Source: Verrucomicrobiota bacterium (GTDB lineage Bacteria; Verrucomicrobiota; Verrucomicrobiia; Opitutales; Coraliomargaritaceae). From it: 64,000 nucleotides of DNA. Of the stretch, positions 29,793 to 35,879 are shown one piece after another. A program made the translations under genes and the position numbers. The notes below the pieces were generated by a model. The model saw only the letters and a list, made by a program, of their open reading frames with translations. It ran no database searches and was not told the DNA's origin. Numbering within the stretch: position 1 is the stretch's first letter; the number at the start of each line of letters is the position of its first letter. The stretch is from assembly GCA_039815375.1 (NCBI GenBank), contig JBCBZJ010000008.1:32001-96000 (forward strand). Reading direction: 5' to 3'.

Positions 29793-30206
29793 ATGTCGCT
29801 CACACTCGAAATCATTACACCTGACGAAAAGGTCTTCTCTGCGGAGGCCGATCAGGTCGTATTGCCCACTGAGTCCGGCGAAACCGGTATCCTTACCGGC
29901 CACGTTCCTTTGGTCACCAAGGTCAAAGCCGGTGAGCTCAAGGTCATCAAGGGTTCCGACACCGAATTCATCGCAGTCGACCACGGCTTCGCCAAGGTGC
30001 TCGGCAACACCGTTTCCGTGCTTACCGAAGCAGCTATTGATGTGAAGGATATCGACCTATCCGAACTCGACTCCGCACAGTCCCGTGCCGAATCCGCGCT
30101 CAAGGAAGCCGAAGCCGAAGGTATCGACCCCTTCGAACTCGAGCGCCTCGAAAAGAACGTCCAGTTCCTTCTCGCGCAAAAGATGGCCAAGGGCCGTCGT
30201 CGGTAA
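29793..30206 (+). CDS. atpC: F0F1 ATP synthase subunit epsilon
   Basis: LEIITPD, GETGILTGHVP. Confidence 0.96.
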   Translation: MSLTLEIITPDEKVFSAEADQVVLPTESGETGILTGHVPLVTKVKAGELKVIKGSDTEFIAVDHGFAKVLGNTVSVLTEAAIDVKDIDLSELDSAQSRAESALKEAEAEGIDPFELERLEKNVQFLLAQKMAKGRRR

Positions 30207-30226
30207 AACAGGCAGCAACTATTTTC

Positions 30227-30259
30227 AAAACGCGGTTTCGAAAGACACCGCGTTTTTTT
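30227..30259. terminator. Intrinsic bidirectional terminator after the atp operon
   Basis: AAAACGCGGT-loop-ACCGCGTTTTTTT. Confidence 0.85.
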
Positions 30260-30263
30260 GTGG

Positions 30264-30340
30264 GGTAGGGACGCCTGCCCTCAGGCGTCCGGTTTCGTCA
30301 AACAAGAATCGGCGGACGTGTGAGGGCACACGTCCCTACC
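30264..30340. repeat. GTAG-family REP doublet
   Basis: GGTAGGGACGCCTGCCCTCAGGCGTCCG ... CGGACGTGTGAGGGCACACGTCCCTACC; inverted arms, each with an internal hairpin. Confidence 0.85.
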
Positions 30341-30749
30341 TTTCTATCAGCTTCAGGGCCTCCCGCGCATTCACGATTCGAACGCCCCCAACTTCTTTCA
30401 ATTTCAGCAAGTCGTTCTTATCACCCGTCACCAGCAAGTCTGCACCACCTTCGACCGCAGTTGCCAGTATCCAGTTATCATCCGGATCGGATGATTCGGT
30501 CCTCGGCTTAGCGATACCTATAATCTCCGCCATCGCATCGATATTCTCAAGCAGCAGACTCGCTTCCATCGGCTTGATGTAAGGCTTGAGCTTTTCATAG
30601 CCCAACACGCGCCGCAACTCATCGATCTGCCAGCTTGAAGTGACCAATTCAAACTGTCCGGCCTCCCATGCGAGGTAGAGCTGGTCGGGTGGAGTGTCTT
30701 TGGTCAGCAAGGCACTGACCAAGACATTCGTATCAAGCACCAGCTTCAC
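30336..30749 (-). CDS. PIN-family putative TA toxin
   Basis: VLDTNVLVSAL, DPDDNWILATA, LVTGDK. Confidence 0.92.
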   Translation of the reverse strand: MKLVLDTNVLVSALLTKDTPPDQLYLAWEAGQFELVTSSWQIDELRRVLGYEKLKPYIKPMEASLLLENIDAMAEIIGIAKPRTESSDPDDNWILATAVEGGADLLVTGDKNDLLKLKEVGGVRIVNAREALKLIER

Positions 30750-30969
30750 GCGACCATTCGATGGCTTCGCTAATGGCAGCTTCGATCAACTCGGGTGGAG
30801 TGTCTGCATTCCGCTCCTTCACAGTGTCCACCGTTTCCCGGAAAAGCGCCTGCCGCACCGCCTGATCGACGAACTTGGACAAATCGCCCTTCTTCGCCCC
30901 CCGCATCGCGAGATGCGTGCGCACCATCCGGTTCGTCTTTTCAGGAATGACTAAAGTCCATCGGCTCAT
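30733..30969 (-). CDS. Ribbon-helix-helix antitoxin
   Basis: MSRWTLVI...RTHLA..G.KKGDLSKFVDQAV; overlaps the toxin start. Confidence 0.85.
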   Translation of the reverse strand: MSRWTLVIPEKTNRMVRTHLAMRGAKKGDLSKFVDQAVRQALFRETVDTVKERNADTPPELIEAAISEAIEWSREAGA

Positions 30970-31011
30970 ATACGCATAATCATATAAGCATACAAAAGAA
31001 GTCAAGCCTCC

Positions 31012-31062
31012 CGAAAAGAACGTCCAGTTCCTCCTCGCGCAAAAGCTCGCCAAGGGCCGTCG
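31012..31062 (+). repeat. Diverged direct copy of the atpC 3' end (30149-30199)
   Basis: 51 bp with 3 mismatches; reads EKNVQFLLAQKLAKGR. Confidence 0.92.
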
Positions 31063-31064
31063 CA

Positions 31065-31123
31065 GGTCGGGCTCGTTATCCTTAACGAGCCCGAGCGGAT
31101 TGATAAGGATATCAATCCCTACC
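31065..31123. repeat. Second REP-like doublet (different sequence class)
   Basis: GGTCGGGCTCGTTATCCTTAACGAGCCC and CGGATTGATAAGGATATCAATCCCTACC hairpins. Confidence 0.75.
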
Positions 31124-31139
31124 AGATAAACTCATTTTC

Positions 31140-31172
31140 AAAAACGCGGTTTCGAAGGACACCGCGTTTTTT
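31140..31172. terminator. Duplicate of the atp terminator; also placed to end the convergent methyltransferase transcript
   Basis: AAAAACGCGGTTTCGAAGGACACCGCGTTTTTT, nearly identical to 30227-30259. Confidence 0.85.
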
Positions 31173-31174
31173 GT

Positions 31175-31984
31175 TTAAGCGATGCAAGCGATTGATCGGA
31201 CCAACAGTTCAGTAGTTTTTCCGCGTCTGGCGGAATCTGAAGCTAAGACAGTTGCTCTAGAGAGTGAATCTTTTATCCAACAGGTATTACCGTATAAATT
31301 TCTTACGGCTGCGTGATCTGCGTTAGATATAACTATTTTTGCCCCAGATTCAGCAAGTTGAGTTAACATGTTTGCTAAGCGTTCTTGATCTTCCCAAGAG
31401 AAAATCCGCTCGTTGTATTTTACGAAAGCGTTGTTATTATGCTTAACTGTGTATGGGGGGTCGACATAGATCACGTCACCTTCTTTGTAATGGGATAGTG
31501 TGACCTCAAAGTCATCGTTGATGAAAGTCACTCCTTTTAATGCTGACGAAATTGCTGAAAAGTCATCATCCGGTAGCAGAACAGTATTTTTAGTTCCTTT
31601 GGGCACATTGAATTCTCCTCGGAGGTTTACTCGGTATAACCCATTAAAGCATGTTCGATTTAAATAAATCATTCGGGCCGCTTGTGAGTAAATGCCTCTT
31701 GGAGCATTAGATCTTACCTGATAATAATAGCTATCTGAGTGTTTCTCGGCATGCGCCTTAAGATGCTTTCTTACCAAAGTTGGATTATTCTTTAGCGCTA
31801 AGTAAGTGTTGATAAGCTCCTGGTTATAATCACCTAGAATACCTTTAGAGGGAAGCACGGTGAAAAAAACAGCCCCACTGCCAACAAAAGGCTCAATGAA
31901 CCGGCCACTAAACTCGGGAATGAGTTCGCGATGGTTCGACATTAACCAGCGCTTTCCCCCTGCCCATTTGAGAAATGGCTTCAC
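31175..31984 (-). CDS. Dam-family (D12 class) DNA adenine N6-methyltransferase
   Basis: KPFLKWAGGK, EPFVGSGAV, YLNRTCFNGLYRVN, YVDPPY. Confidence 0.95.
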   Translation of the reverse strand: MKPFLKWAGGKRWLMSNHRELIPEFSGRFIEPFVGSGAVFFTVLPSKGILGDYNQELINTYLALKNNPTLVRKHLKAHAEKHSDSYYYQVRSNAPRGIYSQAARMIYLNRTCFNGLYRVNLRGEFNVPKGTKNTVLLPDDDFSAISSALKGVTFINDDFEVTLSHYKEGDVIYVDPPYTVKHNNNAFVKYNERIFSWEDQERLANMLTQLAESGAKIVISNADHAAVRNLYGNTCWIKDSLSRATVLASDSARRGKTTELLVRSIACIA

Positions 31985-34308
31985 ACTATAGCTCCTTCAG
32001 CAGAATCCACACTTTCGAGATCTGATATGCGACCAACGAATTCCTCATAAATGAAGTCAATATACTCGAACTCGTTTAATTTATACTGACGCATCTCAGT
32101 GGCATGAGCAGGCTTTCTGCGAAGCTCATTAACTCGTTCCATCCATTTCAGATTTTTAGATAATCCCTTCTCTCCAGGTTCAGGAATATTGAAATATTCT
32201 TTAAATACAGGCCAGTTGGATTTACTCTCAACGACTTTTTTGTATTCAATAAAGTCTAGATAATTATCCAGAGACAAGCGCACTTCAGGGTCGTCCTCTA
32301 ATGACTTTTCATAGGCACGTGTCTTGATCCTCTTATCAGAGATACCGTTGTCCCAGTAAGACTTCAGTCCGTGTATACTAATCAACGTCTCGAAGATAGT
32401 TTTGTGAACTAGTATATTCAACTGCTTAAGCTTATGATCGGCATCAGCGGTTCTTTCCTCTGATTGCTCTTGCTGCCAATCTTCGTATCCTTCGGGAGTA
32501 AAATCATTATGGGTCTGCTGAACAAGAGAACATAATCGGTAATAGTATTCTCGTGGTCCACCGGCTCCAAATTGCACCTTAAATTTTGCTTCTACTTGTA
32601 TATCGGTCGTATTCGCGAACCATTCAGTCACTGGCTCGAGATATTCTTCTATCTCGGATAATAGATCGGACTCAGAACATTCTCGTGCATTAATTGCCTT
32701 CTCTGATTCCATATATCCAATTATTGAGCCTAGTAGCATTATATGGGCTTGAATCGCTACGTTTGTGCAATACTGGCCGGATTTTCCGATTCGCCATTGG
32801 TGTGGGTTCGCACTTTCTAAAATTGAAAAATATGAGTTTAGGACTGTATGCGCTCGCTGCAGAGTTTCCTGATCGGTAAGGCCAGATAATGGCCCAGGCT
32901 CATATTCTTTTCTCCGGAATATCGAGCCCACAAGTCTTGAGCGTCTTATGCCATCCTTGATCGCGGGAACAGTTAAGCATGTGGTTTCTGTCGGCGGTAT
33001 GCCTTGTTGGGTTACTCGATTGTAAAGCGGTTCGCCGACATCTGTATTCATGAGGCCAATAAGTCTAGCTGCAATAGCTCCGATTCTTTCCCCCGGATTT
33101 TCTGAGCCCCATTTTAACTCACCTTCGAGATCATCAAGTAAGGTCTTGGGGACTGGTTTCTGTTGCGAATTGATCTGAACAAACAAATTAGCCTCCTCTT
33201 CTTGTTTTAGTTTCTCAAAAGCGATGACAAATATGTTCTGATCTAAAAACTTATTATCAAGTGGAGCGTAACCGTAAAGGCGATGCTGGCCGTCAATTAT
33301 CCATGCGGATCGATACTTATTTGGCAGTATCAGTTTTCCAAATTTAACAGCGCTGCTTGGATCATCGCTTAGTTTCTCAAACTGACATTTATCAGTGAAG
33401 TTTAGGAGAATGTTGTTTGGAAAAAAACCTCCATCATGGATGAATTTTGATACTTGCCTCAGTCGTGTTCTCTTTACCAAGCGTTGATATGTTGGTGCTC
33501 CGTCTGGGTCATTTAGAGATCGATGGTTAACAAAAGCTATTTTTAGCATTTGCCGAGGAGTTGATACGAAAGAGTAGTATTTCTTACCGCCTAGCACTCC
33601 CTGAACTGCTGGAATCTTTATGCCATCCATCTCTGGGATCTTTTGGTTTTTGAGATATTCCGCTAAGAATTGGAAACGCGCAGCTGAACGTAGGTGCTCC
33701 GAGATCTCTAAGAAATACCTTAGCTCACGTTCAGTTAGAATATTTATATTCTGGCCCTTCGCGCGCTCTTTATCGGGAACGCTCCATACAATATTATGCG
33801 TGACAAAGAACCAAAGGATCTTGGGCTTAAAGTCGGTGCCGTAATGCTTCTTTATCGCATTGGCTATAGGTTTCTTGAGGTTAGAGAACTCGTCGATATC
33901 TTTCTGGAGGGATTTTCGAACGACTTTGTTTGCCGATTTACATTCCATAACCAGCACTGTCTCGTCGTCTTTTGCGAAGACATCTATTTGTTTCTCTAGC
34001 GGCTGTGCTCCCTTTCGTTCAATTCGTATTTTAAATTGCCTTCCACTTGAGATCTCCGGATAGCCCAACAAATATAATAGATACCAAGCCTTGTTTTCTA
34101 CAATTTCGTCGATCTTGCGTGGCCTTCTTAAACGTGTTTTAAGCTTAAGTTCTTCTTCAACCTCCCACCCCTCATTAACGTGCTCTTCTACAAGAGACTT
34201 TTTTACTGATACTACCTCGTTTGGCTTTCTGCGTTTGGCGGCTTCTCTCTTGATTGAAGCACTGTTTGTCAGTAACGGGCCTATGTAATCAGTTGTTATT
34301 CGAGGCAT
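31981..34308 (-). CDS. DGQHR (DndB-like) domain protein with N-terminal PD-(D/E)xK nuclease and C-terminal Swt1-like HEPN domain
   Basis: QIDVFAKDDETVLVMECKS; YQRL...FFPNNILLN...WIIDGQHRLYGY...LFVQINSQQKPV; LDF...NWPVF...VNELRRKPAH. Confidence 0.88.
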   Translation of the reverse strand: MPRITTDYIGPLLTNSASIKREAAKRRKPNEVVSVKKSLVEEHVNEGWEVEEELKLKTRLRRPRKIDEIVENKAWYLLYLLGYPEISSGRQFKIRIERKGAQPLEKQIDVFAKDDETVLVMECKSANKVVRKSLQKDIDEFSNLKKPIANAIKKHYGTDFKPKILWFFVTHNIVWSVPDKERAKGQNINILTERELRYFLEISEHLRSAARFQFLAEYLKNQKIPEMDGIKIPAVQGVLGGKKYYSFVSTPRQMLKIAFVNHRSLNDPDGAPTYQRLVKRTRLRQVSKFIHDGGFFPNNILLNFTDKCQFEKLSDDPSSAVKFGKLILPNKYRSAWIIDGQHRLYGYAPLDNKFLDQNIFVIAFEKLKQEEEANLFVQINSQQKPVPKTLLDDLEGELKWGSENPGERIGAIAARLIGLMNTDVGEPLYNRVTQQGIPPTETTCLTVPAIKDGIRRSRLVGSIFRRKEYEPGPLSGLTDQETLQRAHTVLNSYFSILESANPHQWRIGKSGQYCTNVAIQAHIMLLGSIIGYMESEKAINARECSESDLLSEIEEYLEPVTEWFANTTDIQVEAKFKVQFGAGGPREYYYRLCSLVQQTHNDFTPEGYEDWQQEQSEERTADADHKLKQLNILVHKTIFETLISIHGLKSYWDNGISDKRIKTRAYEKSLEDDPEVRLSLDNYLDFIEYKKVVESKSNWPVFKEYFNIPEPGEKGLSKNLKWMERVNELRRKPAHATEMRQYKLNEFEYIDFIYEEFVGRISDLESVDSAEGAIV

Positions 34309-34339: not shown

Positions 34340-34381
34340 CAAGGTGCTGATCTCGCTCGCCAAGGTGCTGATCTCGCTCGC
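34340..34381. repeat. Perfect 2 x 21-bp tandem repeat containing GATC
   Basis: CAAGGTGCTGATCTCGCTCGC twice. Confidence 0.9.
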
Positions 34382-34560: not shown

Positions 34561-34953
34561 TCATACAAGCACTTCGAATTCGGTGAATCTCTTTAAGGCC
34601 TTATCGAAAGTCTGTGTTTTTGAAACGCCTTCATGCTTCGCGCGAAGTGCGACGATATGCTCGGGCAAATCACCTTTTTTACGGCTGCGCCGAATGGCTT
34701 CGGTCAGGAGACTGCCATGCTCAATTTTGAATCGGGTATCCGCAGTCACGCTCTCCAGAACAGATAGAATTTCGGATTTAGTGAGTTCATAGGCGGACAA
34801 GACCCATGCGGTCTCGATAGCAATGACGAGGGATATCCAGATGGGCTCGCCTCGACGATGCGCCTTGTTTAGCTCGGCGCGGGCGATAGCGAGTTGAGCT
34901 GGATCATCTTCGGTCAAATGCCGAATGAGGACATTCGTGTCCCACGCCTTCAT
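34561..34953 (-). CDS. VapC/PIN toxin
   Basis: WDTNVLIRHLTEDD, IETAWVL, TFDK. Confidence 0.9.
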   Translation of the reverse strand: MKAWDTNVLIRHLTEDDPAQLAIARAELNKAHRRGEPIWISLVIAIETAWVLSAYELTKSEILSVLESVTADTRFKIEHGSLLTEAIRRSRKKGDLPEHIVALRAKHEGVSKTQTFDKALKRFTEFEVLV

Positions 34954-35207
34954 GAGTTCTTGAAGGACTTCACTGCTCCGGCTTTCGCCGCCGCTTTCAT
35001 TTCTTCAATAGAGAGCCGCTTCTTGCGCTTCATGAATTTGGCGGCGGCACCGTCGCTGACCATAGGAGTTGACTGCTTCTGAAGAACGATTTTCCCAGCC
35101 TGGTTCGATTCGAATTTCACCTGATCTCCTTTATGCAGATTCAATTGCGTTCGAATTTGCTTGGGGATCGTGATCTGGTGTTTGCTTGTAATCGTTGCAG
35201 TAGCCAT
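34950..35207 (-). CDS. AbrB/MazE/SpoVT-family antitoxin
   Basis: ATITSKHQITIPKQIRTQLNLHKGDQVKF. Confidence 0.92.
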   Translation of the reverse strand: MATATITSKHQITIPKQIRTQLNLHKGDQVKFESNQAGKIVLQKQSTPMVSDGAAAKFMKRKKRLSIEEMKAAAKAGAVKSFKNS

Positions 35208-35208
35208 G

Positions 35209-35233
35209 CCTTACAATTTGGTAATATGTAAGG
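35209..35233. promoter_or_regulatory. Probable TA autoregulatory operator
   Basis: CCTTACA-N11-TGTAAGG inverted repeat between a minus-strand TTGACA (35237-35242) and the antitoxin ATG. Confidence 0.55.
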
Positions 35234-35238
35234 AAATG

Positions 35239-35646
35239 TCAAGTGGCCCTTGTCCAATCTTCAACCGTGAGTCCGGCGACTCGACCGAACTCTTTTGTGT
35301 TGTTGGTAACAAGAGCCATGGAATGTGCACGTGTGATGGCGGCGATGAAGACATCTTTCGGGCCGATGGGGTCGCCGCGTTGGGCGAGGTCGGTTCGGAT
35401 GTTAGCGTAGTGTGGGCTGACTTTGGCGTCGAAGGGGAGTCTTGCGAAGGGTTTCACGAAGGCTTCGATCTTGGCTGCGTTCTGCGCTTTTTGCTGACTG
35501 CGGCTTACGTCATAGAGCAACTCAGCGTAAACGATTTCCGGAATGTAGATGTCTTTCGGCCGGACACTTTGCAGGCGTTCCCGAATAGCTGGATGGCTGC
35601 CCTTCAGGTAGTAGATGATGCTATTGGTATCCAAACAATACTTCAT
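35239..35646 (-). CDS. VapC toxin
   Basis: YCLDTNSII, IVYAEL, IGPKDVFIAA, LVTNNTKEFGRVAGL..EDW. Confidence 0.93.
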   Translation of the reverse strand: MKYCLDTNSIIYYLKGSHPAIRERLQSVRPKDIYIPEIVYAELLYDVSRSQQKAQNAAKIEAFVKPFARLPFDAKVSPHYANIRTDLAQRGDPIGPKDVFIAAITRAHSMALVTNNTKEFGRVAGLTVEDWTRAT

Positions 35647-35879
35647 AGCGCTTCGCGGGGGCTATCGGCTACGTTGTCCAGATCGTCGTGCTGCTTGAAC
35701 TCGGGGTCCTTGATGCTCCCGAAGAGGCTGAAATAGTCCTCCGGCCAGATCTGCCCGTCATCGGCAGCTGCGCTCAACTGTTCGCAGGCCCAGCTCGACA
35801 GAGAACGATTGGCCCGTTTCGCCGCGAGTTTGGCTTTTGCCTGTGTCTCTTCGTCGATGTAAATGGTGAGTTGTGCCAT
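35643..35879 (-). CDS. CopG/RHH-like antitoxin
   Basis: MAQLTIYIDEET...SLSSWA...WPEDYFSLFGSIKD; overlaps the toxin start. Confidence 0.85.
   Translation of the reverse strand: MAQLTIYIDEETQAKAKLAAKRANRSLSSWACEQLSAAADDGQIWPEDYFSLFGSIKDPEFKQHDDLDNVADSPREAL

Follow-up and report, generated by a model that had tools for sequence, protein, structure and literature searches.

A widespread two-gene cassette pairs a predicted nuclease-DGQHR-HEPN protein with a Dam-class DNA methylase

What does a cell gain from a protein in which a DGQHR domain sits between two predicted nuclease domains, and why is its gene coupled to that of a DNA methylase? The question arises from a 64,000-nucleotide stretch of a Verrucomicrobiota bacterium (GenBank assembly GCA_039815375.1, contig JBCBZJ010000008.1, positions 32,001 to 96,000; here called the window, whose own numbering is used for all coordinates without a locus label). 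On its minus strand, two intact open reading frames (ORFs) form a cassette: one of 775 amino acids (aa; 31981..34308), hereafter the effector, and one of 269 aa with a GTG start (31175..31984), which encodes a Dam/DpnM-class (D12) N6-adenine DNA methyltransferase. The stop and start codons of the two genes overlap in a GTGA (31981..31984), an arrangement that suggests translational coupling, and small overlaps or gaps separate the pair in most related loci as well. An earlier, sequence-only reading had described this two-gene operon and proposed it as an undescribed defence system; its account of the two ORFs and their overlap is accurate. The new analysis indicates that the cassette matches no named system, is widespread and is probably a variant of restriction-modification (RM) coupled to abortive infection. 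That it serves a modification-linked defence of some kind is very probable; the specific wiring set out below, in which methylation gates both restriction and abortive infection, has about an even chance of being correct.

Three predicted domains in one effector

Profiles and an AlphaFold2 model of the effector (mean predicted local distance difference test score 85, with a separate model for residues 225-615) resolve the three domains that had been read from motifs. The N-terminal domain (residues 64-218; 33655..34119, minus strand, as are all effector domains) has the restriction-endonuclease fold and carries E71, D109, E122 and K124, the latter three being the signature of PD-(D/E)xK nucleases. 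Specifically, the model of residues 66-199 matches AF1548 with Z 11.9 (root-mean-square deviation (rmsd) 2.0, 114 aligned residues), Card1 and Can2 with Z 9.6 and NucS/EndoMS with Z 8.2, and Foldseek recovers the nuclease fold at E 3e-5. The sequence-only reading had written the motif as ID-x11-ECK; the D109...E122-C-K124 pattern is present, with a spacer of 12 residues rather than 11. The DGQHR/ParB-sulfiredoxin domain follows (residues 229-385; 33154..33624) and holds H262, YQR at 274-276, DGQHR at 339-343 (33280-33294) and N380. It matches Pfam DndB at E 1e-13 and scores 141.7 bits against a cut-off of 58.85 with TIGR03187 (DGQHR), and the model of the middle part (225-615) resembles PadC (Z 8.6, rmsd 2.8, 100 aligned), KorB (7.0) and sulfiredoxin (6.3), together with weak matches to SspE (Z 4.0) and BrxU (Z 3.5); Foldseek returned nothing for this part at E<=0.001.

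An all-helical domain (residues 386-614; 32467..33153) comes next. Since TIGR03187 spans residues 234-529 and the DpdB profile residues 231-564, this helical region is common to stand-alone DGQHR proteins, and it is a candidate DNA-binding or dimerization part; no clear fold match was found for it, which does not demonstrate a new fold. The C-terminal domain (residues 615-770; 31999..32466) is assigned to the HEPN fold by its helical model and its N727-x2-R730-x4-H735 motif (Rx4H at 32104-32121). The model of residues 616-770 matches AbiF (Z 8.2), the AF_0298 HEPN protein (7.1) and the Swt1 C-terminal domain (6.0), values that are moderate for a helical bundle, and the Pfam HEPN_Swt1 cut-off is not reached, one effector homologue scoring E 8e-4. 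Compared by sequence with the PDB, the effector gave 0 matches at E<=1. The activities of the three domains, namely nucleoside triphosphate (NTP) binding, DNase and RNase, are predicted from known families.

Conservation singles out the middle of the protein. In an alignment of 128 sequences (the query and the 127 full-length proteins among its best 150 homologues, at 25-47% identity), all 128 retain DGQHR and the QR and FxxxN motifs are likewise invariant, compared with 90/128 for D109, E122 and K124 together and 96/128 for R730 and H735. The YQR...DGQHR and Rx4H motifs pointed out earlier are thereby conserved beyond chance. Among 148 proteins from the fetched loci, columns at least 90% conserved number 40 in the DGQHR domain, eight in the nuclease and seven in the HEPN domain; DGQHR is the most constrained domain of the effector.

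The family is large, with 2,097 homologues at E<=1e-20 (7,998 candidates scored) and 762 clusters at 50% identity (E<=1e-30; fragments included). The effector-methylase pair recurs patchily across many bacterial phyla; with this genome counted, a full-length effector homologue occurs in 3/301 genomes of the order and 6/401 of the phylum, in 5 of 72,556 plasmids and in 0 of 50,697 phage records. Two family members are longer (P0180 and P0228; 981 and 910 aa) through extra N- or C-terminal parts, and the tail of P0228 matches PADLOC PDC-S14. An apparent excess of interrupted genes (10 of 81 effectors against one methylase) was left unused, as six come from one series of metagenome-assembled genomes and may be assembly errors.

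A candidate marking enzyme beside the effector

Two sets of loci carry the evidence for coupling. The first comprises 81 loci, the best 80 of 527 confirmed genome matches plus one viral locus: a Dam-type methylase lies adjacent on the same strand in 72, another D12 methylase in two and an MT-A70 methylase in three; of the remainder, three run into a contig end, and in the last the effector gene is shortened and accompanied by a convergent Dam-like gene. The second, more distant set reaches down to relatives of 30-35% identity and comprises 93 loci, with a Dam-type partner in 67, a radical S-adenosylmethionine (SAM) protein in 14, another D12 methylase in one and no partner in 11, nine of which have a contig end within 800 nt. 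Once the 12 contig-cut loci are dropped, a candidate DNA-marking enzyme adjoins the effector in 159 of 162 informative loci (139 Dam-type, six other adenine methylases, 14 radical SAM). The methylase coupling claimed from a single sequence is in this way confirmed by co-occurrence across genomes, and what emerges in addition to that claim is that writer and output can each be exchanged. No other neighbour of the effector recurs widely among the fetched loci.

Effector and methylase distances correlate (Spearman 0.54 over 80 pairs; permutation maximum 0.09), which fits a pair that travels as a unit, and shared ancestry probably accounts for part of the correlation. A quick, unrooted tree of the middle domain (115 domains, 108 labelled) requires six changes of partner label, four involving radical SAM, one MT-A70 and one the second D12 type; being unrooted, it leaves their direction open.

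The radical SAM protein, which has a CxxxCxxC motif and a B12-binding-like N-terminus, replaces the methylase and is often accompanied by a GHKL ATPase and a DGQHR-like gene (L082:8149-12289, L083:8287-12510, L103-L110, L112, L138, L144, L154, L164, L176). This module has no PADLOC match, and it also occurs alone, in 12 plasmid records versus five with the full effector. Dam-linked copies of the effector keep the HEPN R/H pair in 117/122 and the DNase D-E-K triad in 104/122, which gives no sign that HEPN is only the backup suggested by the sequence-only reading; radical-SAM-linked copies keep them in 15/15 and 5/15, respectively. At three loci (L107:1-3758, L112:1-3548 and L114:9668-13599), a ParB-like, a small, a helicase-like and a second ParB-like gene adjoin the effector.

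A methylase subfamily and a core without nuclease

The methylase matches PF02086 at E 1e-50, exceeds the TIGR00571 cut-off and best matches Type II methylase profiles; its closest solved relative is M.DpnII-1 (E 2e-52), and it is the only D12 match in the genome. It has DPPY at residues 175-178 and belongs to a distinct subfamily with the motif DPPYTVxHNNN. R118, N120, N126 and P128 are invariant in 112/112 cassette copies; in an alignment to E. coli Dam, R118 and P128 face R124 and P134, and K132 (95/112) faces Y138. In Dam, R124, P134 and Y138 read GATC. The site of the cassette enzyme may accordingly be related to GATC, and its product is predicted from known families to be N6-methyladenine (m6A). 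A search for the target site by word depletion (synonymous-codon shuffle) gave no signal, only a general TTA bias; GATC in 12 radical-SAM-linked genes reaches z -2.9, which is not significant over 136 words, and its observed/expected ratio of 0.90 in the host genome is uninformative for a recently arrived cassette. The host genome strongly avoids GTAC (observed/expected 0.17, the next lowest word 0.64), which suggests a long-resident GTAC restriction system unrelated to the cassette.

The view from the methylase changes the picture of what is essential. A profile of cassette methylases was compared with three samples of 401 genomes, with at most six candidates scored per genome, and gave 19 matches at E<=1e-82, or 16 without the three seed genomes. 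A DGQHR protein adjoins 13 of these 16, eight of the 775-aa type and five stand-alone; as a control, a DGQHR match was seen in 0 of 22 weaker Dam-like matches (first sample; flanks of about 1.5 kb). At the five nuclease-free loci, the stand-alone DGQHR protein measures about 385 aa and is joined by a 180-200-aa protein for which two to four membrane helices are predicted. Because the methylase also pairs with nuclease-free DGQHR proteins, methylase and DGQHR domain are the constant core, the nuclease is optional and outputs vary.

The unit of subfamily methylase, membrane protein and stand-alone DGQHR protein, with no nuclease-fold gene, is seen at L351:4367-6084, L352:4409-6156 and L355:1939-3661, and again at L358:1872-3559, L359:1940-3670, L228:4783-6488 and L337:4792-6521. 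It is a candidate membrane-type abortive system, and no description of it was found in the literature searched. The DGQHR-linked membrane proteins are divergent members of a single family, which has no match in Pfam and only a weak SLATT-like one in PADLOC. Of 169 effector loci, 6 also have the membrane-DGQHR module next to the effector, and the module occurs with the methylase on a Roseateles plasmid. On the Zymomonas plasmid pZZM405 (L336:1133-4795), one operon joins a 496-aa DGQHR protein, a 440-aa protein and the same methylase subfamily, close to a DUF4433 and macro-domain pair; the 440-aa protein gave no alignment to the effector profile. The relevant passages of a Zymomonas methylome report (PMC8432527) make no mention of pZZM405 and are thus silent on this methylase, and no link of the enzyme to RGATCY was found.

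Relation to known systems

PADLOC 2.0 assigns no system to the locus, the effector and its distant relatives giving only partial DpdB/DndB matches, and the open-access full-text literature yielded no paper that characterises the pair. The claim that it is undescribed stands in so far as no named system matches; a tested system of the same outline exists all the same, and a 2013 survey probably included the ParB-HEPN fusion. The tested system, PD-lambda-5 (Vassallo et al. 2022, PMC9519451), is the closest: two genes, a ParB-fold protein labelled ParB/HEPN and a D12 methyltransferase ('ParB/HEPN, methyltransferase' in its Table S1), phage-validated with broad protection of E. coli and regarded by its authors as compact RM plus abortive infection. 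Its HHpred table gives ParBc, weak HEPN-type matches and the D12 methylase. The cassette shares the adjacent D12 methyltransferase, though its match to the PADLOC profile PD-Lambda-5_B reaches only E 4e-8. PD-lambda-5A differs in having an N-terminal ParBc-type domain, with neither PD-(D/E)xK nor DndB among its ten listed HHpred matches (PMC9519451), and the PD-Lambda-5_A profile matches neither the effector nor anything in the whole genome at E<=0.1. The cassette is therefore like PD-lambda-5 in outline and not a member of it.

The 2013 entry is a Swt1-like HEPN fused to ParB, exemplified by Saro_3948 in Table 1 of Anantharaman et al. (2013, PMC3710099) and rated 'mostly active'; the relevant passages of that paper mention neither an N-terminal nuclease nor a methylase link. 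On Novosphingobium pNL1, an effector homologue (31% identical) accounts for the sole HEPN_Swt1 match; judged by this and not by a direct match to the old locus tag, it is probably Saro_3948, in which case the entry belongs to the effector family.

Other relatives share parts. SspABCD-SspE and GmrSD/BrxU likewise combine a ParB/Srx-fold nucleotide domain and a nuclease with a DNA mark, with the motifs QR, DGQ(H/Q)R and FxxxN (PMC4619093). They differ in having a DUF262 NTPase and HNH, no HEPN, and sulfur or glucosyl-hydroxymethylcytosine marks, where the cassette has PD-(D/E)xK and predicted m6A; the effector has no DUF262 or HNH Pfam match at E<=1, and its C-terminus models as a helical HEPN-type bundle. 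DndB and DpdB possess the same DGQHR domain and following helical part, and DndB has been described as ParB-like fused to HEPN (PMC3632139). They are regulators or helpers of modification of about 350 aa, whereas the effector has a nuclease domain on either side of its DGQHR domain and a methylase for a partner. The effector scores 22.5 bits against a cut-off of 328 for the DndB equivalog TIGR03233 and 84.6 against 300 for the DpdB equivalog NF041060, and misses DGQHR_dnd_1 too. Across the whole genome (99.9% complete), the one DndB-like match is the effector itself, DndC and DpdA gave no match and DndD none over cut-off, so the locus is neither Dnd nor Dpd. This extends to the whole genome the absence of dnd and dpd genes noted for the window; ssp genes were not searched separately. 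DpnII-type Type II RM, finally, offers the nearest solved methylase, M.DpnII-1, and the same two-gene layout of writer and nuclease, with a candidate cognate sequence-specific methylase next to a predicted nuclease gene. The differences lie in an effector without sequence similarity to any solved protein and with additional DGQHR and HEPN domains, and in a methylase with its own HNNN motif and with K at the position of Y138 in E. coli Dam.

A probable insertion site

The cassette is likely mobile. Its GC content is 42.2% as opposed to 50.8% for the genome, a value as low being found in 0.12% of 3,387 equal-sized genome windows; this AT-richness, already visible to the sequence-only reading, makes it likely that the DNA was imported. 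Its position amid toxin-antitoxin modules had likewise been noted, and three PIN-type pairs surround it: an RHH_6 and PIN_3 pair (30336..30972, minus strand) on one side and two further pairs, MazE-like with PIN and RHH-like with VapC (34561..35879, minus strand), on the other. The first pair lies between the end of atpC and a copy of that end: a segment at 30998..31067 (plus strand) is 86% identical to the final 70 nt of atpC (30135-30204), presumably left by an insertion behind the ATP synthase operon. In one relative (G032), a related PIN pair lies directly after atpC, and the end of this operon looks like an insertion hotspot in this family.

A hairpin with T/A runs on both sides (31136..31172), a 92% copy of the one after atpC (30222-30258), is a likely terminator of transcription from the cassette, although a scan did not flag it. 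Upstream, an exact 21-nt tandem duplication (34340..34381) lies 31 nt before the effector start codon. A promoter scan of the cassette stayed at chance level, and 35 upstream regions (34 close homologues of the effector plus the query) share no motif above shuffles. A 77-nt imperfect inverted repeat over the PIN stop codon (30264-30340), resembling repetitive extragenic palindromes, has more copies on contigs C11, C33 and C54 of the same genome and in relatives. At L003, L016 and L027, the sequence some 100 nt before the effector gene resembles integron attC ends by eye, and some effector copies may be integron cassettes.

Proposed mechanism and its rivals

The available data are compatible with a model in which the methylase would place m6A on a short host site and so mark self. 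The DGQHR/ParB domain would bind nucleotide and sense unmarked DNA as a switch; such DNA would then activate both fused enzymes, the PD-(D/E)xK DNase to attack the invader and the HEPN RNase to arrest the cell. Trigger, DNase target and HEPN arrest are here inferred. There are precedents: in SspE, NTP hydrolysis by the ParB-fold domain is coupled to the nuclease fused to it (PMC9646914, PMC13251355), and HEPN domains fuse to restriction subunits (PMC3710099).

Several observations weigh against this model. Two intact, full-length effectors (L114 and L124) have no marking gene within more than 2 kb on each side; the loci were picked by similarity, so that kin are not independent; and the copies from which the methylase profile was made all came from beside an effector. 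Three of the 16 non-seed methylase matches are partnered by a HerA, a SIR2 or a plain ParB gene. T or R replaces the catalytic lysine in 10 of 15 radical-SAM-linked copies, and GATC is not depleted in Dam-linked cassettes (z +1.7 and +1.8, synonymous-codon shuffle). The ParB and HEPN fold scores are moderate (Z 6-8.6); motif conservation bears part of the weight. Finally, SspE is wired the opposite way, its mark being needed for activation (PMC9646914, PMC13251355). Were the effector to follow SspE, DGQHR would read the self m6A, which would be required to activate the nuclease against invaders, and an effector without its methylase would be silent rather than toxic. The nuclease of SspE is indeed licensed by GTP hydrolysis and depends on the host mark (PMC9646914, PMC13251355), the weak SspE and BrxU fold matches point the same way, and such wiring would explain the constant pairing equally well and the two partner-less intact copies besides. 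We nevertheless consider it unlikely, although the observations made here fit either wiring: SspE relies on DUF262, HNH and a sulfur mark, and the writers here resemble the ordinary sequence-specific methylases by which Type II systems protect self DNA.

Somewhat less probable again is a plain Type II-like RM system in which PD-(D/E)xK restricts alone, DGQHR acts as a DndB-like self-regulator and HEPN as a PrrC-like backup. DndB represses its own operon (PMC4507180), PrrC-type logic has been proposed for RM-linked HEPN (PMC3710099), and the affinity of the methylase to Type II profiles accords with such a system; the weaker constraint on the nuclease than on the DGQHR domain does not, nor do its absence from loci of the membrane-protein type and the lack of a shared operator-like motif upstream of the 34 homologues. 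The cassette might instead be a selfish addiction module, loss of methylation killing the cell with little antiviral benefit. Its place amid three toxin-antitoxin pairs at an insertion site and its patchiness across phyla would suit this; its near absence from plasmid and phage records, three conserved enzyme domains (more than addiction requires) and the antiviral activity of PD-lambda-5 (PMC9519451) make it improbable. That the effector is a stray DndB/DpdB component with an unrelated methylase as neighbour is barely credible: DndB and DpdB profiles do match, yet all equivalog scores are far below cut-off, the genome has no DndC, DpdA or DndD over cut-off, and the pairing in 159 of 162 loci contradicts it.

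Implications

The cassette bears on a question that reaches beyond this genome. Accounts of what DGQHR domains do diverge, DndB having been called a repressor, DpdB an ATPase helper and the related domain of SspE a mark-sensing switch, and a two-gene cassette with an ordinary, easily mapped methyl mark makes this question directly testable. Since the effector family is large and has no PADLOC 2.0 model, the genomes that carry it are under-annotated. The swap to a radical SAM partner, furthermore, leads to an enzyme that might introduce a new kind of DNA modification. A broader view is tentative and, at present, possible rather than probable: DGQHR domains would be general readers of DNA marks that link exchangeable writers (Dam-type, a second D12 type, MT-A70 and an unstudied B12-type radical SAM enzyme) to exchangeable outputs (a DNase with a HEPN RNase, or a small membrane protein), the radical SAM versions would write a novel DNA modification, and the present cassette would be the simplest, two-gene entry to them all.

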